DNA from: Octopus vulgaris
Taxonomy: Eukaryota
NCBI GenBank assembly: GCA_951406725.2
Contig: OX597830.1
Location: forward strand, 22,444,001-22,508,000
Direction: 5' to 3'
Length of the DNA stretch: 64,000 nt
Shown here: piece after piece, positions 191-12,148 of the stretch
Position numbering within the stretch: the stretch's first letter is position 1
Layout of the letters: the number at the start of each line of letters is the position of its first letter
The notes under the pieces: generated by a model
What the model was told of the DNA's origin: nothing
Database searches by the model: none
What the model saw: the letters and a program-made list of their open reading frames with translations, nothing else
Program-made: the position numbers and the translations under genes

Positions 191-878
191 CGATGGGGTT
201 CTTTCAGTTTCTGTCTACCAAATCCACTCACAAGGCTTTGGTCGACCCGAGGCTATAGTAGAAGACACTTGCCCAAGGTGCCATGCAGTGGGACTGAACC
301 TGGAACCATGTGGTTCATAAGCAAGCTACTTACCACACAGCCATTCCTATACATTACTGTATAAACAGCTGAACTTAGAATACAGACCTGAAACAGATGC
401 CACAAACCTGATGTACTAACATTCAGCTAAACCACTGTTTGGGATGAACGTTTTATTTATTGCACTTCAAAAGGATGAAAAGCAAAGTTGACAAAAGCAT
501 GATTTGAATTCAAAATGCAGATAGCCAGGACAAATATCACAATGCTTTGTGTCCAACCTAGTAACTGTGATCTTTGAAGGTCCTCTCAGACTAGTGAAAC
601 TCATGTAGTTGATACCCAGCCTGAACATTTATAGGTAAAACATTGATACAGAGGTATTCAGGGGTCTGGTTTGAATGTAATCAAAAAGGCACCCAAGGGA
701 CAAGGTCATCATCATCAGCAGTTGGACAGTGCAAGAGAAACTGATAAACCAGTGGTCTGTGCCAAGCTCTAATGTTTACTTTGACATGGTTTCTACAGCT
801 GGATGCCCTTCCTAAAACCAACTACTTCACAGAATATATCGGGTACTTTTTCCTTGTGACAAAAAAGTTTCTACTTAC

Positions 879-1371
879 CAGTTTCTCATCCGGCAGAAGT
901 GTTAAAACAAGATAAGGAGGTGAGAGAAGAGGAATGCTCAGATCGGAGTCTTTTAAATGTGGGGCACAACAGGTAAGCGAAGCAGATTCTTTGGCCTGGT
1001 GTTTCTCCTCTGTCAAGTCAGTTTGAACAACCAGTTCGACATTAGATACATCCACAGGTCTGTCGGCTAAATCCATGATGTAGTTAGAATGAGGTGTCTT
1101 CTCTACTATTTTCACTCCCAGTGGTATGTCCTGCATCAAGTTGTTGAGAAGGGGGTTACGCAGGATCTGCTCTTTCAGGGAATCGGTGGGTAACGTCATC
1201 TTGTCTGTTTCTGTGAGTTTCTGAGCTTCATTCTCAGTGGGTGGAGTTTCGCTGGGAGGGCTGTTGGTCTCAGTGGATTGCTCCATCTTCTTCGATGTGG
1301 TACAGGATTCTAACTCAGCTTTCAGAGGTTTCCACAAGCCTTCTATCCAAGGCTCCACTACAAGTTCTAAC
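879..1371 (-). CDS. MTRR: Methionine synthase reductase, fourth coding exon (end of FMN domain plus hinge/linker); the gene continues left of the window
   Basis: gaatag|G then LELVVEPWIEGLWKPL (MTRR 'LELVVEPWIAGLWPAL') ...DSDLSIPLLSPPYL...EKL|gtaagt. 493 nt, phases 2/0. Confidence 0.93.
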
Positions 1372-1534
1372 CTATTCAATGGAAAATGGTTCTAATGTGT
1401 AACCACACTTAGACAATAATATATCACAAATATATACAAATGCTGTGTATGTGTGTAGAAATAGGTGCTTTTCTTTGAAGGTTAATAAATTCTTTGAATT
1501 CCTTATTGACAAGATAGGAAACTAGCTAAATATT

Positions 1535-1744
1535 CATTATTTACATTTGACGGATATTTGTCCTCATCTTGTTTGTTGTTAACACAATGTTTTGGCTGAT
1601 ATACTCTCCAGCCTTCATCAGGCATCTTGGGGAAATTTCGAACCTGGGTTCTCATTCCTAAGGTATTTTTCAATGTTGGTGTTGTTATTATTACTATTAT
1701 TATAATTATTATTCAGGTCACTGCCTGGAATCGAACTCGGAATC
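1535..1744 (-). mobile_element. Short retroelement with tRNA-like B-box, (AAT/AAC)n spacer and hammerhead-like motif; inverted copy at about 2060-2250 (+)
   Basis: About 150 bp shared in inverted orientation with 2075-2220. Minus strand GAGTTCGATTCC at 1738-1727. Confidence 0.7.
1581..1626 (-). ncRNA. Second, inverted copy of the same hammerhead-like motif (decayed)
   Basis: Minus strand GAUGC-CUGAUGA-A-GGCUG(loop)CAGCC-AAAA-C-AUU-GUGUU. Differs from CCGAAACGUU by two CpG-type transitions. Confidence 0.6.
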
Positions 1745-2048
1745 ATCATCATCATTGTTTAACGTCCGCTTTCAATGCTAGCATGGGTTGGACGGTTTGA
1801 CTGGGGTCTAGGAAGCCAGGAGGCTGCACCAGGCCCAGTCTGATCTGGCAGTGTTTCTACAGCTGGATGCTCTTCCTAACGCCAACCACTCTGTGAGTGT
1901 AGTGGGTGCTTTTTACGTGCCAGGCGAGTCAGGCAACGGCCACGATCGGTTAGTGCTTTTTACGTGCCACCGGCATGGAGGCCAGTCGAGGCAGCGCTGG
2001 CAATGGCCATGTTCGGATGGTTCTTTTACATTCCACCGGCACTGGTAT
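1742..2048 (-). mobile_element. SINE-like family C ((GAT)n tail, internal degenerate tandem units)
   Basis: Shares 'tttctacagctggatgcccttcctaacgccaaccac' and 'ccatgctagcatgggttggacg' blocks with copies near 5490, 6280, 16085-16420, 19400, 32452-32912, 34030 and 44630. Confidence 0.75.
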
Positions 2049-2123
2049 CACAACTACCATTACAACAACAACAACATTGAAAAATACCTTAGGAATGAGA
2101 ACCCAGGTTCAAAATTTCCCTAA

Positions 2124-2169
2124 GACACCTGATGAAGGCTGGAGGGAATATCAGCTGAAGCGTTGTGTT
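2124..2169 (+). ncRNA. Minimal type-I hammerhead ribozyme-like motif (decayed) in a dispersed repeat
   Basis: GACAC-CUGAUGA-A-GGCUG(loop)CAGCU-GAAG-C-GUU-GUGUU. Stem I GACAC/GUGUU, stem II GGCUG/CAGCU. GAAA is changed to GAAG. Confidence 0.65.
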
Positions 2170-2935
2170 AACAAGAAACAAGATGAGGACAAATATCTGT
2201 CAGATGTAAATAATGTACATGATTCCTCATCTCTTAAATATAGAACTGTAGCTAAATATTATTATTGATATTATTGTACCATATGGATGTAGAGTAGACC
2301 ACAGCAGTATTATTTATGCTTACTGTAGTCATAAAGACTTGGCTTCTGAGAGCCCAGTAATGATAATACCATCTATGGGGTTTGTAGGATAACATATGAG
2401 AACATGTTAAAGAAGCATATGGACTATTCCAGCACCAATGAGCTGCATTTTTGATTGACTGGGGAATGTGGAGAGGTGTTGCCTCAAAACTAAGAGTCAC
2501 TTCATTGGTTTTGACTCAATAAATTTGAACGATTTATAGCTTGAAAGACAATAATTCTTCAAAGAAGGAATACAGTCTTTGAAGGCGATGAAAAAAAAAA
2601 GTTGTTGAATCTAATGGAGTCTGTTTTGATTAATAAATATTGATTTTTTTTTTTTAATTATTAAATTCCTTTCGTCTGTGAATTAATATCAAAATTATAA
2701 TTTAGCAACATATTCTTACAGAAAGGGAAAAAAAAAAATTAATTGTATTTTTTTTTTCATCTAGTTTCAGCTCACGAGCTGTGGCCATGCTGGGGCACTG
2801 CCATTATAAAAGATTAATTTATCAATCATCCCGCCTACACGATAGAATTACTTCAACAAAGAAAAAAAGAAACAAAAATGAAATGTTTATATATTGTTGA
2901 CATGTAGTTTGCTCCCCTTGATAAGCTTTTAACTA

Positions 2936-3983: not shown

Positions 3984-4410
3984 GATTTCAAATTTTGGCA
4001 CAAGGCCATCGATTTTGGGAGATGGAGTAAGTGGATTATAACGACCCCAGTGCTCAACTGGTATGTATTTTATCATCCCAGAAAGGACGAAAGGCAAAGT
4101 CGACCTCAGCAGAATTTGAACTCAGAAGCTAAAGACAGACAAGATGTTACTAGGCATTCTACCTGGTGTGTTACCAATTCTGCCAGCTTGCTGCCTTGTG
4201 TATTGCTAATATTACCTCAGCAAAAGCGGCGAGCTGGCAGAAACGTTAGCATGCTGGGTGAAATGCTTAGCACTGAGTTCAAATTCCGCTGAGGTCGACT
4301 TTCATCCTTTTGGGGTTGATAAATTAAGTATCAGTTGTGTATTGGGGTTGATCTAATCGACTGGCCTCCTCCCCAAAAATTTCAGGCCTTGTGCCTAGAG
4401 TAGAAAAGAA
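3984..4410. mobile_element. Two head-to-head copies of tRNA-derived SINE family B (3984-4196 minus, 4222-4410 plus)
   Basis: 'gcggcgagctggcagaaacgttagc...gagttcaaattccgctgaggtcgactt...catcctttcggggtcgataaattaagtaccag'-type sequence recurs more than 10 times in the window. Confidence 0.8.
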
Positions 4411-4780
4411 TAATACATCAGAATATAATCTGCCGTTATTTATATAACAACAATCTATACTGCTAATTAATATCGGTGGCAGAAGAGCAAATAAACGAGC
4501 CTCAACATGGACACTTGACCTGCTAGAAATAGCAACCAAATCTCCTTCAGACAACATTTTCTCATAAGATATACTGGATAATGCAGTCCTTCAAACCCCT
4601 AAAAAGATAGGGATGGACACATCTAGAATGTCTTTTGTTATAGGTCTGCTCAAGCAAGAACCTGGGGTTAACAGCATCATCATCATCATCATTCATGACA
4701 TCAATGACGACAACGACCACCACCACCACCACCATCGTCATCTTCATTAATGACCCAGTAGCAGGACCCATAGAACTTAC

Positions 4781-4898
4781 CCAACAGCATCATCAGCCCA
4801 ACCACACTCATAAAACAGGTGAGCCCCTAACTCCTCAAGTTTTCTGTTGATAGTTTTGCCACCATTGCAGAATGCATTGTAATTGGTGTCTCCCAGAC
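4781..4898 (-). CDS. MTRR: Methionine synthase reductase, third coding exon (not shown in this frame in the ORF track)
   Basis: Hand translation: ttgcag|(G)[38 protein letters not shown](G)|gtaagt. Matches MTRR '[25 protein letters not shown]...GHADDCVG'. 118 nt, phases 1/2. Confidence 0.95.
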
Positions 4899-5174
4899 CT
4901 GCAACAAGGACAAAGTAACGGTTTTTATTTGGCCAACATTGGAAGTTATTTCAACATGACATGACTGTACAGGGAGCAGATTGTGTGATGATGGGGGTGA
5001 AGCAACACTTTGTGTGAGTTTCAAGACCTTGAGAAGTTTGTGTGAGTGTGGTATTTCTAAAATTTGAAGGAGTATGATGTGTGTGTGTGTGTGGAGGTGA
5101 GGGGGGATGATGGATAGTAAATAAAATTGTTGGCTTAGTGGGAAGATAATGTATTTTCTAAGTCTTTAAAAAGC

Positions 5175-5252: not shown

Positions 5253-5783
5253 GACAGAGATGGAGAGAACAGAAGTGTGGTGGGTAAGAAGTGAGACTAA
5301 TGAAAGAGGAAGGAAGGGAAGATGAGAGCAGAGTAAAAGGGAGGAGAGAGCAAAGTAAGGAGAGGGGAGAGAAGGGTAAGAGGCAAGGGTAAAGGAAAAG
5401 AAAAAGGGAGAGAAAAGAGTACAGTAAATTGATTTTAGGTAAGACAGATGTTCTAGTTATCTACATGAGATTTACCTCCACCTCATCATTTAATGCCCGT
5501 TTTTCATGCTGGCATGGGTTGGATGGTTTGAGAGGGGCTGGCAAGCCAGAGGACTGTGCTGAACTCTATTACCTGCTTTAGCATGGTTTCTACAGCTGGA
5601 TGCCCTTTCTTATGCCAACTTATTTACCCAGGTGCTTTGTATGTGGCACCAGCACCAGAGGGGGTCACCAAGTAAATTGCAAGACAAAGTCCCCCTTGAT
5701 TAGGAGGTGGGGGTGGAGAAGGAGTAGTATCGAGGGAAATGGTTTAAAACAATACTCAGAGTACCAACAAATGATGTACTCAC

Positions 5784-5934
5784 CAAGAACTGTGTATGAC
5801 AGATGTCTCAAGTATTCTTCTTGTTTGGACTTTTTTTTCAGTTTGCGCAGAAATCTCCCGGCTGTGTCAGGGACATCTCCATCGCCTGTGGTGGACACGA
5901 CAAAAACAACACTGCTTTCATCCTCGATCTTGAA
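5784..5934 (-). CDS. MTRR: Methionine synthase reductase, second coding exon
   Basis: ctccag|FKIEDESSVVFVVSTTGDGDVPDTAGRFLRKLKKKSKQEEYLRHLSYTVL-G|gtgagt. Contains the flavodoxin STTGxGDxPD motif. 151 nt, phases 0/1 fit the neighbouring exons. Confidence 0.95.
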
Positions 5935-6730
5935 CTGGAGACATAGAATGGTGATAAGAAAGTTAAGTGGTTGTGCTGCTGGTGATTTTTGTTGTTGCAC
6001 TTGTTATTTAACCCCAAGTCAGCCCCAACTGAGCAGATCTATGATTAAAGGTATTCGGCCATGACCAACTTATTTTTCATGTAAACCTAGCACTACTTAC
6101 TTGTTCAATGTATCCTTCCTCCTTTTTTGTCTAAGACAACAGAATGTGATTTGAGGGATATTTGGCTGCTATTTTTAGCATGTCAAGCAACTATGTAGAG
6201 CAGTGGTTCTCAACCATTTTTTTTCTGATGGACACCTTTGATTCCTATTTTATTCAGGTTGGACCCTCATAACCATTCATCATCATCATTTAACGTCTGT
6301 TGTCCATGCTGGCAAGCTGGGAGCTGCACCAGGTTCCAGCATGATTTGGCATGGTTTCTACAACTGGATGCCCTTCCTAATGCCAACCACTTTACAGAGT
6401 GTACTGAGTGCTTTTATGAGACACCACACAGGTACTTTTACGTGACGCTGCATGGTTGCTCTTATGTGGTACCACATGGGTGCTTTTACATGGCACTCCC
6501 ACAAGTGCTTTACATCAGCAGCAGGATCAGTTTTAACACTTCTGCTGCAGAGTATGGGTCTTCTTGAGCACAGCAAGGCACCAGGTATCTCAGTCTTTTG
6601 TCATCTCACCTGAAAGGTTCAGTATCCTGAGGTCTTTCTTCAGTACATCATCCCATGTCTTCCTGGCTCCCCCACCTCCATGTGTCCCATCTACTTTGAG
6701 AGATTGGCATTCAGTATTTTAGAATCCTAT

Positions 6731-6905
6731 TATCTATTATATAAAATCTGTTCTGTCTGTCTGTGTATGTGTCTTCTAGGATCTTGGGCATCCTCCATGC
6801 GATTGCACTCAAGTTTGATTTGTAGATACCGACGGTATCAGGGCATGTATAAGTTTTGAAAAAAATTACAAAAATCAATTCCAGGTGAGAATGCGATCGA
6901 TAAAG
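6731..6905 (+). mobile_element. Possible non-autonomous Helitron 5' fragment
   Basis: A|TCTATTATATAAAA followed by (TCTG)n/(TG)n, a layout typical of invertebrate Helitron 5' ends. No 3' end seen. Confidence 0.4.
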
Positions 6906-7369
6906 TGAATAAAATCGTTTTTCTTTGGAATAGAAAAAAAGTCTATCTTTATTTCTTCTTTTGCTGGTGTCTCAAATTTAGGTTAAATCAGTGTTTCTCA
7001 AAGGGGAGGCCTATGGGACGGTTGGACAAGTTGTTTTGAGAAAATTTGGTTTAAATGTTTGACAACTCAGCACCGTCCATTGGAGGTGGGGTCGTTTTGC
7101 TTGTATTTTTATAATTAAATATTATTAAGGAATCATGTAAAAAAATTGTTAAACTATTTTGTGTATTGTAGAAATATAACCAATTAATCGGGGATAAATT
7201 TTAATAACAAAATCTTATATGGGCCTCACAAGGGACATAGGAACCCCGGTTGAGAACACTGAAAGGATTTATAGTTGGTTTATCTGATGTTGTTTCATAT
7301 ACTCATTTCAGTCATCAGTCTGCAGTCATGCTGGGACACTGCCTTGAAGTACTGAGATTGAGTTCTTAC

Positions 7370-7782
7370 TTCTTTATTGCCCACAAGGGGCCAAACACAG
7401 AGGGGACAAACAAGGACAGAGAAAGGGATCAAGTCGATTACATTGACCCCAGTGTGTAACTGGTACTTAATTTATTGACCCCGAAAGGATGAAAGGTAAA
7501 GTTGACCTCAGTGGAATTTGAACTCAGAATGTAAAGACAGACGAAATACCTATTTCTTTATTACCCACAAGGGGCTAAACACAGAGGGGACAAACAAGGA
7601 CAGACATAGGTATTAAGTCGATTACATAGACCCCAGTGCGTAACTGGTACTTAATTTATCGACCCCGAAAGGATGAGAGGCAAAGTCGACCTCGGCGGAA
7701 TTTGAACTCACAACGTAACGCAGACGAAATACCGCTAAGCATTTCGCCTGGCGTGCTAATGTTTCTGCCAGCTCACTGCCTT
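7370..7782 (-). mobile_element. SINE family B with tandemly duplicated 3' part
   Basis: 7370-7550 and 7553-7735 are near-identical direct repeats. The head ends at about 7782. Confidence 0.8.
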
Positions 7783-8762
7783 TTGATTGATTTCTATTGA
7801 CTTATTCCATCAGCTTCTTTAACCAAACTGCTAAGTCACAGGGATGTAAACAAACCAACATCTGTTGTCAAGCAGTGATGTAAATTAGTCAAAAGAAGGG
7901 GTAGTGCACATCAGATTTAAAGTTCCTCTGAGACAGGTGAAATTGATGAGGTTAATATTCAGCTTGAATATCTATTTTTGGTCAATGTTTGCGGGATAAT
8001 TGTGGATAGGGAGGTAATTTCAGTGGGTTACTACTGCGAGGAGAAAGGACTGGTTGAAGTATTTCATGCAGGTGTGTGTGTGTGTGTATGTGTGTGCATT
8101 TAAGATGAGACAAAGCGAGGGTGATGGAAAAAGGAGATGAGAGGATCAGGTGGGCATGGGTGGAATGGATACTTATTTAGAGTTAGATGGACTTGGTTGC
8201 ACACAGTTCTGGTCACAAGATACAAACTTCTGTCAGTTCTGCTGGTTGTCTGTTAAACTATCATCATGGACATCTGCATTTTTGTCTATGTATACAAGCA
8301 TGCTATTCTGCGCTCTGAATATGTGTAGTTGGCTGTTGTTTGGTGCAGGTCAGACTTATTTTAGCAACCCTATGACCAAAGGTTTTTCAGTAGTGACCAT
8401 ATTGCCACTTTTTTAGTAATTGTATCTATGACTATATTCATCATCTTATTAAAAAAACTATAGGGTATATGGTTGTTTTCTTCTAGCAGGTCATTGACCA
8501 TGTAGAAGCTATCTTTTTTAATCTAATTGTATAAATAACCATGTATACATGTAAACACACGCACACCCAGTATGTGCACAGACACACCTGTCTGTCTATC
8601 TAATCGGCAGACACTACAAAGTGACTCAAACTAGTTTTTGTAAGTGTGACGTGCACAAAACCCTTGGCCCTTGAGTCACATTGTCACTTATGCTGACTAA
8701 AAATATAAAATATATATATACTCATGTTTTGAGTTTTATTTATTCTGTTTGAAGAACTAAAC

Positions 8763-8812
<50 letters not shown>

Positions 8813-8826
8813 TACATGTACACACA

Positions 8827-9000
8827 CAGTAGCCCCTTGGATATTGCAGGTGTTATGTTCAAACCCCACCCTGTACTGTAAATTTTTAAAATTATTTTTA
8901 TAATTTGTATATATTTATTTTATTATAAATGCAAAACAACACCATGGAAGAATCAACGTAAGCTTAAATGACAAACCGTGATATGGCGTAGGATTACTGT
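8827..9000. mobile_element. Small degenerate Tigger/pogo-like MITE
   Basis: cagtagccccttggatattgcagg ... ccgtgatatggcgtaggattactg|ta form imperfect TIRs. Confidence 0.5.
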
Positions 9001-9823
9001 ACATAGGCACACATTAGTATGTCAAAATGCATTCAAACAGAAATAACAGGAAAGATAATAGTGACAGGCAGAGAGAGAGAGGGGGGGGGGAGAACTGAGC
9101 CTCAAATGTATATAGATTATATTAAGTATGTGTACATGTTTTTTAACTGTGTATATATGTACATGTGTGTAACAGGAATATATAACAAGGGGAAAAAATG
9201 GATAAAGGAGATGTGGTGTGTTGATTATGTAATATATATTGACTATAAAATTGATTATATAAAATTAAAGTTGAATAGGAAATAATTAAATCAATCAAAA
9301 AGAATAGGACAAATGTTTAATTGGACAAAAGAGATGGAAAGAGGATTAAATAAGACAAAAAAAAAGTGTTAAAAGTTTGATATATGAAACACAACCAAAA
9401 GTAGGACCAGAGCAAATTAAGTGAACTGCAATGTAGGTCAAATATTAAATAGGACAAAAACACAAGTTTAAAGTGGGACAGGAGTTAAATAGGACAGTAA
9501 TGGAGGGAGGGAGTTTAATTAAAGCAATGGTGAAGGAAGAACCAAGGTAAATAAGTTAATGAACAGTAGAAAAAGGGGTAAGTTAAAAAGGATAACACCG
9601 AAGGAATATTAAATATATCTGATGATAAAGAGTATTAAAAACAGATAGGAAGTTAAGTGGGATTATAATTATAATGAAGGTAATTATTTTGTAATTAATT
9701 AATTAAAAACATAGCGATAATCAAAGAATGTCCGTGCATATTTCGAAGTACCAATTTGAGAATTTAGGCAGTTTGGAAAATGTGGAGAGAGAAGTTATGG
9801 TAAAAGACAAAGGCATCAGTTAC

Positions 9824-9970
9824 TTTGTCATCGGTGCTACTGAGGCAATGGCGTTCTACAGAGAGACCACTGGCCACGGCATTGTCGTAGATTAACTCGG
9901 AAATGGACTCTGCCTGACCTGTCTGGGAGGCATATAGCAACAGAAAGTGACTGGTGTGAGGGGCTGGCAT
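9824..9970 (-). CDS. MTRR: Methionine synthase reductase, first coding exon (flavodoxin/FMN domain N-terminus); the exon begins at the acceptor at 9997 with 27 nt of 5'UTR
   Basis: Encodes MPAPHTSHFLLLYASQTGQAESISELIYDNAVASGLSVERHCLSSTDDK, similar to MTRR 'FLLLYATQQGQAKAIAEEI...LHCISESDK'. Polypyrimidine/cag acceptor upstream and GTAACT donor after 9824 (phase 0). Confidence 0.93.
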
Positions 9971-10170
9971 GACACTGCAAGTAACAGAAGAACATTCCTG
10001 AAGAAAGGAACAAAGGAAAAGACAAACAAGCAAGATAACATAGGAATGCAAGAAAAATATATGAAATGAAATAGCCATTCGCGTATCATACTAAATGCAA
10101 ATACATCACAAAAAAGGCAATTTAAATGTAGTGTCCATCTGGAGATTAACATCTTTTATGAACATAATAT

Positions 10171-10526
10171 TCTTTTATTTGTTTCAATCATTTGACTGCG
10201 GCCATGCTGGAGCACCGCCTTGAGTTGAGCAAATCGACCCCCAGGACTTATTCTTTGTAAGCCTAGTACTTATTCTATTGGTCTCTCTTGCCAAACCGCT
10301 TAGTGACGGGGACGTAAACACACCAGCATCGGTTGTCAAGCGATGGTAGAGGGGACAAACAAAGACACACAAATATATACATACACACACACACACACAT
10401 ATATATATATGACAGGCTTATTTCAGTTTCCGTCTACCAAATCCACTCACAAGGCATTGATTGGCCTGAGCCCGGAACCATGTGGTTGGTAAGCAAGCTA
10501 CTTACCACACAACCACTCCTATGCCT
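10171..10526 (-). mobile_element. tRNA-derived SINE family A (internal TA/TG microsatellite, GTAAAAGA tail)
   Basis: Head 'ggagtggctgtgtggtaag...ccgggttcagtccc' (A/B-box-like) and tail 'ccagcatggccgcagtcaaatgactgaaacaagtaaaaga'. More than 20 full or partial copies in the window. Confidence 0.88.
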
Positions 10527-10659
10527 ATGTTTAATCCTTTAGCATTCAGATTACTCTGTCAAGTGTAATGCTTATTTATTTACATTGTTTTGAATTAATC
10601 ATGCATTATCTCATAGCTTTGAGATTTTCATGTGTGATTATTTCTTTTTGGAATATCAT

Positions 10660-11020
10660 AGGTGCAGGAGTGGCTGTATGGTAAGTAGCTTGCTTACCAA
10701 CTATATGGTTCCGGGTTCAGTCCAACTGCATGGCAGCTTGGGCAAGTATCTTCTACTATAGCCTCAGGCCAACCAAAGCCTTGTGAGTGGATTTGGTATA
10801 TGGAAACTGAAAGAAGCCCGTTGTATATATGTATATATATATATGTATGTGTGTGTGTGTGTATATGTTTGTATGTCTGTGTTTACGTCCCTGTAACTTA
10901 GCAGTTCGGCAAAAGAGACCGATAGAATAAGTACTATGCTTACAAAGAATAATCCTGGGGTTAATTTGTTTGACTAAAAGGCAGTGCTCCAGCATGGCTG
11001 CATTCAAACAAGTAAAAGAG
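10660..11020 (+). mobile_element. SINE family A, inserted into a TTAA MITE (about 10531-11115)
   Basis: Family A head and tail. The flanks join into the 'ttaaccctttagcatt...aatgctaaagggttaa' MITE also seen at 20288-20516. Confidence 0.85.
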
Positions 11021-11947
11021 TAGGGTAGGTGTGAGAGGTCAGATCTGGCCAGCTTGAATATAAAACAGGAAGAATATTTGGATTGGACATGGCTGGTTTA
11101 AATGCTAAAGGGTTAAAAACAAAAACACACCAGTTAGCAGGAGCTGACAAAAATTGTGCAGCAGCAGTAGTGAGGAATGCTGCCACATCTGTTGCATATA
11201 ATGCTACTACTACTGATATATCTTCCTGTTTTTAAACACAGTACATCCATAAGAGATATTACCTCTGAATGAACACTGCATTTAATTTGCCTTTTCACAA
11301 TGTATTTGCATTTAGTATGATTCATGGATGGTTATTTTAATCTAATACTGCTTCTTTTGCATATAATGGATAAAATAAGATAATAAAATAAAATAAAAAA
11401 AGCAAGAGAAGAACTCAAATAAATAATTGGCCACAAGTCAATGGCATGCAAGAAAGTTGGTGTTGTGCATCTCCAGGACAGTTTCAATCCCAAAGAACTA
11501 TGGCATGCAAATAGGCAGCTGAACAGTTAGGTATGACCCATAGGTCTATTGTTCCAGATGTACAATGTTTCAATGTAGTTGCATTCTCTCTACTATCCAA
11601 TCAATTTCCTTAGTTGATTAACCCAAATCAACCATGGTTATGCAAACAATATGTCCAAAGCTTTAGACATACATTTACATGGCCATCCTGACTTTATTTT
11701 CCAGATATAATATCTAGTGTTCTCATGTTACTCTAATGACATTAAAGTGTGGTTTGAAATAGATTTAGCTGCTATTTTTAGTAGGTAGATTTTTCAATGC
11801 ACCTTCCCTGTTTTTTTTAAAAGTCAGTAAGGTGTATTTTAAAGGATATGTAATTATGATCAGTTTTAGTCTGGTATGGCCATGTGGTTAAGAAGTTTGT
11901 TTCACAGCCATGTAGTTTCAGGTTCAATCTCAATGTGTGGCACCTTG

Positions 11948-12148
11948 AAGGCGGCGAGCTGGCAGAAACGTTAGTACGCTGGGCGAAATGCTTAGCGGTA
12001 TATTGTCATCTTTACGTTCTGAGTTCAATTTCCACCGAGGTTGACTTTGCCTTTCATCCTTTCAGAGTTGATAAATTAAGTACCAGTTGCATACTGGAGT
12101 TGAGCTAATCGACCCCCCCTCCTCAAAATTGTGCCTAAAGTAGAAAAG
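11948..12148 (+). mobile_element. SINE family B with 16-bp TSD, nested in an older SINE A-like copy
   Basis: aatgtgtggcaccttg at 11932-11947 and 12149-12164. Confidence 0.9.

Follow-up and report, generated by a model that had tools for sequence, protein, structure and literature searches.

The closest described relatives of the octopus repeat reported here are Penelope-like retroelements. In Poseidon_Ac (PAc) of the green anole, two reverse transcriptase (RT) start sites yield a tail, and the hammerhead ribozyme needs protein help (PMC11167929). The octopus element resembles Poseidon_Ac in its RT domain followed by GIY-YIG, its hammerhead over the start of the open reading frame (ORF) and its AT-rich targets; it differs in that the ORF start is inside the hammerhead in Poseidon_Ac and likely about 30 nt before it in octopus, and in that the cited passages on Poseidon_Ac describe no tRNA-derived segment or RNA polymerase III (Pol III) promoter (PMC11167929). 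As in octopus, the minimal hammerheads of metazoan Penelope-like elements are of type I with a 5-bp stem I, G10.1-C11.1, palindromic 15.2-16.2 and an extra base between 9 and 10.1, and they occur as solo motifs and as opposite-strand pairs 100-700 bp apart; unlike in octopus, a tRNA head is not described for these elements in the parts of that source cited here (PMC4209133). Pen2a/Pen3a of Adineta vaga and Penelope of Drosophila virilis share with the octopus element inverted pseudo-LTRs, an optional tail and first codons within the pseudo-LTR, and they have 8-10-bp target duplications, a pseudo-LTR promoter and a 5' palindrome (PMC3846280, PMC2377424). Their promoters are of Pol II type (TATA/Inr-like, or TATA-less with an intron), whereas the octopus repeat has A and B boxes (PMC3846280, PMC2377424); the studied Penelope promoter is internal and TATA-less, with a spliced intron (PMC2377424). 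The layout of an inverted arm with a target duplication is found in rotifer and other Penelope elements (PMC3846280, PMC8557442). The hammerhead, the inversion and the tail are known Penelope features, and a hammerhead in a Penelope end repeat is by itself ordinary.

The schistosome Sm-alpha/Sj-alpha repeats, like the octopus unit, have a Pol III promoter beside a hammerhead; they are non-coding, tandem, SINE-like units, whereas the octopus unit inserts head-to-head and belongs to a coding element as its end repeat (PMC6765202). Plant Cassandra TRIMs also carry the Pol III promoter of a host RNA gene within a terminal repeat, but Cassandra is 5S-derived, of LTR type and non-autonomous, and the octopus element is tRNA-derived, of Penelope type and coding. 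Animal non-LTR retrozymes are short hammerhead units related to Penelope pseudo-LTRs, as are the octopus copies; they form tandem non-autonomous arrays, whereas the octopus copies are dispersed inverted pairs without a separate lineage (10.64898/2026.07.22.740005). The repeat annotation of Octopus vulgaris has 30 recently active Penelope families, with no such detail in the passages cited (PMC13282606). Our search of published papers found no Penelope element with a tRNA-derived promoter, and the PMC13282606 repeat library may already hold the family. Perfect A and B boxes without tRNA pairing, 5' ends at the start of the head and a unit free of TTTT are features that we did not find described.

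We analysed a 64,000-nt stretch of O. vulgaris DNA (the window) and found that positions 1535-2248 are one decayed head-to-head insertion of a Penelope/Poseidon-type pseudo-LTR with a tail on one arm (Table 1). Its two opposite arms (1530-1691 and 2059-2220, 162 nt) are 89% complementary, in agreement with an earlier, sequence-only reading that had reported two copies in opposite orientation. One 12-bp duplication lies outside both arms, and a 28-nt extra end is present only on the right arm. Hence, this is a single insertion, and the single outer target duplication rules out two separate ones. The hammerheads of the arms are on opposite strands, which rules out their pairing as a dimer. By eye, no target duplication was found around the middle repeat (1745-2046). 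The A box missing from this copy may have gone when the element inserted or when the middle repeat arrived. The minus-strand B box and the (AAT)n spacer were present as reported, and the reported core mutations, GAAG and AAAA, were found at 2124-2169 (+) and 1626-1581 (-), respectively. With both hammerhead cores altered, the local copies are dead, as had been supposed. Elsewhere in the window, a second inverted pair at 3986-4406 belongs to a different repeat, SINE-like and very abundant, that matches the window dozens of times, and one hammerhead-like motif from another family lies at about 49617 (minus-strand count).

Table 1. Features of the insertion and of the neighbouring host-gene exons, in window coordinates
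Feature	Position	Strand	Basis or remark
Target-site duplication, left, 12 bp	1523..1534	+	Identical to 2249-2260
Left inverted arm, pseudo-LTR body, without tail	1535..1677	-	
Minimal type-I hammerhead, AAAA for GAAA; helix III and stem I also altered	1581..1626	-	
(AAT)n spacer, left arm, bounds approximate	1678..1709	-	
tRNA-derived head, 3' part only; B box 1738-1727; A box absent in this copy	1710..1744	-	Head collinear with host tRNA genes
Unrelated abundant repeat at apex, (TGA)n end facing 1745	1745..2046	-	16 other matches in window
Degenerate (AAC/AAT)n spacer, right arm, bounds approximate, without head	2047..2072	+	
Right arm, pseudo-LTR body; likely ORF start codon 2095-2097 and first Penelope protein codons	2073..2220	+	
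Minimal type-I hammerhead, GAAG for GAAA; predicted cut after 2164	2124..2169	+	
Penelope tail, right arm only	2221..2248	+	2225-2248: 4,478 exact matches in the searched genome
Target-site duplication, right, 12 bp	2249..2260	+	Identical to 1523-1534
Open frame with MTRR exon downstream of insert	822..1371	-	Acceptor read from sequence at 1373-1372
Open frame with MTRR flavodoxin-domain exon upstream of insert	4780..4950	-	

The insertion had been placed in an intron of MTRR, and the exons on either side bear this out. Minus-strand flavodoxin exons were found at 9764-10090 and 5665-6003, with a third at 4780-4950, and the exon downstream of the insert had human methionine synthase reductase (2qtl) as its sole PDB match (E 1e-6); PDB searches with three MTRR exon queries gave no match. 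Positions 4780 and 1371 bound the host-gene intron that contains the insert. Once transcribed into the MTRR pre-mRNA, the arms (1535-1691 and 2059-2220) could form a duplex of about 160 bp, 165 nt from the splice acceptor, which is a possible substrate for A-to-I editing. About three-quarters of the insertions are inverted, so the family may provide many such duplexes.

In the searched genome (G000, 2.8 Gb), we found at least 2,180 candidates for the pseudo-LTR body and 4,478 exact matches to the 24-nt tail piece, vs 0 in the control. This piece is kept exactly in 22 of 58 tails from other loci. Hence, there are roughly 12,000 tailed insertions, probably an underestimate; family divergence is about 7%. 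Full copies have a 74-nt head before the (AAT)n spacer. Head was followed by body in 27 of 29 head-selected loci, and a 28th was linked via a deletion; the expected linkage of the tRNA-derived head and its B box to the hammerhead therefore holds in other copies.

Our arm sample came from contig C1, where the first 90 tail-anchored insertions listed, unselected on the 5' side, gave 124 arms. Across the 124 arms, the majority base was correct at every core position of the hammerhead; the core was intact in 65 arms, 44 of which also had the CG palindrome. A loose minimal-hammerhead pattern gave 14,894 matches in the genome vs 38 in the reversed control, and 55 of the first 100 matches listed belonged to this Penelope family (by eye). 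The motif is not a chance match. The family majority has the CUGANGA and GAAA core, the NUH triplet, stems I and II and the palindromic helix III of a minimal type-I hammerhead, and stems I and II form in folding, with single motifs showing no distinctive stability (z -0.7 to -1.3). Hammerhead A14 and position 17 are core bases. Hence, the helix-III palindrome that a dimer could use is the 4-nt ACGU; the minimal type-I motif that had been proposed stands, and its six-base palindrome AACGUU shrinks to these four.

Covariance models did not detect the hammerhead. Rfam had 0 matches at gathering score in the window, and at E-value level it found no tRNA and no hammerhead in six head-bearing loci and one 301-nt unit. 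RNA read ends from three runs had no pile-up at the hammerhead cut site. At L016:822-894 (-), the model of the HDV-like CPEB3 ribozyme gave a weak match that fell short of gathering score (26 bits, E 0.0035).

The genome holds further hammerhead families, which have the same frame with different stem II sequences, no tRNA head and abundant TTTT. L261-L300 (G000:C1) include at least three such minimal-hammerhead families, about 200 nt long, T-rich, mostly within (TA)n and without a tRNA head. In the commonest head-less family, copies start sharply about 75 nt 5' of the hammerhead in 17 of 20 loci (by eye), at a motif that we take to resemble a Pol II initiator. Two head-less loci adjoin Neptune-like ORFs on the opposite strand. 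The sharp start of the commonest head-less family suggests that the 5' ends of short copies generally mark the RNA start in the hammerhead elements of this genome.

One body-selected locus had an ORF fragment directly before the head, and a search with this fragment gave 150 scored matches. The ORF stop was followed by the head within about 30 nt in 24 of 29 ORF-selected loci, and the head came after the ORF in all 20 larger stretches, including two that cover loci already counted. At 569 aa, the longest frame matched Pfam RVT_1; its 2,914 homologues carry RT annotation, in some with GIY-YIG PF01541, and the ORF profile matches telomerase RTs. On the decayed frames of the family itself, Pfam gave no GIY-YIG match, and the endonuclease motif was recognised by eye; no intact full-length ORF was found. 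Body and tail continue in frame into the ORF N-terminus, as they do in homologue P0005. Hence, the hammerhead lies within the first ORF codons, with the likely start codon about 30 nt ahead of it. The unit runs from the ORF stop through about 30 nt to the tRNA-like head, followed by (AAT)n, the hammerhead-bearing body, the tail and the next ORF in frame, and the pseudo-LTR (3' UTR and ORF start) is present at both element ends. Contigs from two further organisms span the whole element.

Insertions consist of two arms anchored at the 3' end, with a single tail and a target duplication. An inverted arm was present in 68 of the 90 tail-anchored insertions, and target duplications of at least 8 bp were found in 42 of 90, vs 1.5 in shuffles. 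The repeated unit is almost certainly the pseudo-LTR of an autonomous Penelope-type element. We take the element to be Penelope/Poseidon from its domain order (RT, then GIY-YIG-type) and from its lack of a Neptune-type cysteine linker as in L267; the Poseidon-type placement is putative. The suspicion that Penelope machinery is involved was correct in that head, body and tail belong to an element with an RT and GIY-YIG-type ORF, and the 3' part compared well with Penelope pLTRs (same layout, in-frame junction to the ORF, tail and target duplication). However, the stand-alone non-autonomous retroelement that had been proposed is no such thing, as head, spacer, hammerhead and tail are the autonomous element's own pseudo-LTR, and the inverted pair that had been singled out, although real, is the ordinary form of a Penelope insertion.

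Many junction copies at L383-L409 have lost internal sequence, so that the first 200-450 nt of the ORF abut a second repeat; several break near ORF position 225-263 and may be deletion derivatives copied in turn. At L026:1-750, directly upstream of a copy of the element, is a decayed fragment that looks like a different Penelope-type endonuclease (Naiad-like by eye). At L007, L009-L011, L084 and L099, (AAT)n spacers or arm ends are often fused to the 3' ends of a LINE of the restriction-endonuclease type, which also terminates in (AAT)n, and nested targeting of one microsatellite seems likely.

The head aligned over its whole length with 12 host tRNA genes carrying 8 labels (z 2.6-6.8, best Arg-TCG), in a sample without Ser-GCT and other types. 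Its majority A and B boxes are perfect. Of its stems, 2 of 7 acceptor pairs and 2 of 5 T-stem pairs are left, vs 7 and 4-5 in five host tRNAs, and it folds no better than shuffles (z -0.4 and 0.7). ARAGORN found no tRNA in the window or in 10 head loci. The head is tRNA-derived, then, as had been claimed from the B box; the idea of a full tRNA head held for the two boxes and the collinearity with tRNA genes and failed for detection by ARAGORN and Rfam, for which the head has decayed too far. At L176, seven tRNA-Cys-like genes lie in tandem within 3 kb, some with changed anticodons.

We located the 5' ends of copies by automatic chaining of arms. The 5' end lies in the body for 52 of the 154 arms with body, in the spacer for 31 and in the head for 57; the other 14 arms extend 5' beyond the head. 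Those reaching head position 15 mostly stop at positions 1-15 (37 of 51), and the end rate there is 0.086 per nt, compared with 0.002-0.003 for body, 3' head and ORF side. Many head-region ends fold back on a 5-bp palindrome just 5' of the tRNA +1 base. Among 30 tail-to-ORF junction loci, two start at head positions 6 and 11 and extend into the ORF, and none has a continuation into an upstream ORF; one tandem outside these loci, L259, does continue into an upstream ORF. One study supplied three runs of RNA reads (6,000-12,000 mapped per run); these covered both strands, mirrored the profile of DNA copies and had no start or end pile-up at the head, and they look like read-through of embedded copies. 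No GT-AG joint was seen among the RNA reads shown, at a depth in the 5' part of the ORF (below about 15) that is too shallow for an intron test.

Host tRNA genes are mostly followed by runs of at least four T. In the element's ORF, link, head, body and tail alike, no TTTT site is common to 20% of copies; the lone exception was in one copy of five at a thinly covered site and was not confirmed in the junction loci. By composition, about 5.5 shared TTTT would be expected in the 2.65-kb unit, vs none found (P ~0.004). In 122 kb of copies, observed/expected ratios were 0.91 for T2, 0.85 for T3 and 0.21 for T4+, and runs of G4+ were also scarce (0.27 of expectation). In 79 related Penelope loci from metagenomes, T4+ reached 1.58 of expectation (1.30 in the 42 with like T content), and the near-whole related units (15 of 38 examined) had 3 to 23 TTTT runs each; two Neptune-like ORFs in the searched genome had about 4-5 TTTT per kb. 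Shuffling of synonymous codons gave a weak signal, with 4 TTTT seen vs 8.7 expected in six frames (P 0.04) and 3 seen vs 2.7 expected in the longest single copy. Since the copies all go back to one or two masters, the scarcity of T runs counts as one observation.

Among 52 relatives with ORF cores of at least 1.4 kb, 3 had TTTT-free cores, without tRNA-like boxes. The TTTT-free relatives L301, L303, L304 and L330 had no Pol III boxes, and all had TTTT elsewhere in the unit. An A/B-box pair 3' of the ORF was found in 0 of the 79 related loci, 28 of which extend to a 3' hammerhead-like motif. L330, a metagenome contig, carries a canonical-looking hammerhead upstream of a plant-like Penelope ORF core of 1.6 kb, in which 0 TTTT occur vs 7.4 expected at 28% T.

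We therefore read the locus as a decayed insertion of a pseudo-LTR that, as a family, begins with tRNA-derived A and B boxes which likely make Pol III start the element RNA there, and we put the probability of this reading at about 0.6. It draws on the perfect boxes without tRNA pairing, the 37 of 51 ends at the start of the head and the lack of a shared TTTT; perfect boxes with lost stems are as expected had promoter function been retained. Against it stand the G runs, which are scarce too, the 3 of 52 TTTT-free relatives, the other sharp 5' ends and the lack of an RNA start site in the reads. Since the head-less family is also sharp (17 of 20) and 5' palindromes of pseudo-LTRs are known, the pile-up of 5' ends does not require Pol III.

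The sequence-only reading had seen a tRNA-headed, self-cleaving non-autonomous retroelement, possibly mobilised by Penelope RT. Such a SINE would copy from its own short Pol III transcripts with borrowed Penelope enzymes. Short copies are indeed far commoner than ORF-linked ones, with only 14 of 90 insertions extending 5' of the head; copies that start at the head hold all that a Pol III transcript and a Penelope RT would require, and head, body and tail are all without TTTT. However, the same head is found in the autonomous element, and there is no oligo(A) end. Comparing about 80 arms, with head-selected arms excluded, we saw no variant diagnostic of short vs ORF-linked copies; three columns with linked non-CpG variants had both variants in both classes at like ratios (30 ORF-linked and 76 short arms collected), and divergence from the majority was 6.7% for short copies and 7.3% for ORF-linked ones. 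Hence, the short copies are products of the autonomous element, an independent SINE lineage is not supported, and the earlier proposal is improbable, although some secondary copying of short units may occur. The copies resemble a tRNA-derived SINE in opening with a head that bears A and B boxes, and they lack a non-autonomous lineage of their own. We also rejected classification as a non-LTR retrozyme, as insertions are mostly single head-to-head pairs with occasional direct repeats of the body rather than tandem arrays.

The element could also be an ordinary Penelope, transcribed by Pol II, that captured a tRNA piece in its 3' UTR as a passenger, with 5' ends set by RT stopping or self-priming at the palindrome. 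Fold-back junctions centred on the pre-head palindrome are frequent, palindromes mark the 5' ends of rotifer pseudo-LTRs in the cited account (PMC3846280), the head-less family also has sharp 5' ends, and the TTTT-free relatives and low G runs fit here. We nevertheless find this account doubtful, as the boxes are perfect though the tRNA stems are lost, the head is carried by both subfamilies, a stem of 5 bp makes a poor stop signal for 73% of arms, and the whole unit is without TTTT when 15 of 15 near-whole relatives have at least 3. If the head were instead a processing signal at which RNase P cuts a longer Pol II transcript, fixing the template end at the tRNA-like 5' end, the clustering of 5' ends about tRNA +1 would be expected. 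That is very improbable, however: the acceptor and T stems are mostly unpaired, the head folds like its shuffles, and the ends scatter over 15 nt, with many 5' of +1.

Under the reading we prefer, Pol III, which normally makes non-coding RNA only, would probably start at the head, to judge from the boxes and the copy ends, and the RNA would span the first repeat, the ORF and the second repeat. The element endonuclease would cut both target strands, and on these RT would start internally, once at the tail end and once about 35 nt further in, in line with measurements on anole Poseidon. Complementary DNAs begun in the first repeat would run off the RNA 5' end at the head and then join, or often fold back on the short palindrome there, to give short inverted pairs; the thousands of SINE-like short copies would be by-products of these run-off cDNAs. 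The hammerhead would cut about 70 nt into the ORF, and only as a dimer or with protein help. Since a cut inside the ORF start would need a dimer or protein, the hammerhead would be a processing or translation switch and not a simple releaser. An uncapped Pol III RNA would need cap-independent translation; ribozyme-linked translation initiation is reported for viral RNAs in the cited passages (PMC13725137).

A bolder version of this scheme is one we advance tentatively. Here a coding retrotransposon would have swapped its Pol II promoter for a captured tRNA promoter, its RNA of about 2.9 kb would be Pol III-made from end to end, and every TTTT would have been purged. The uncapped RNA would be translated via the hammerhead or the (AAT)n leader, and run-off repeats would be ready-made SINEs, a snapshot of the birth of Penelope-borne SINEs.

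For repeat annotation, libraries may label the short copies SINE although they are Penelope fragments. From the roughly 12,000 insertions, the two RT start sites and the 5' end of the RNA can be read, and these natural data support the in-vitro internal-initiation model. If the head is a working promoter, this would be an autonomous protein-coding mobile element transcribed by Pol III. If true, this bears on the translation of uncapped RNA in animals, the purpose of the Penelope hammerhead and the origins of SINEs.
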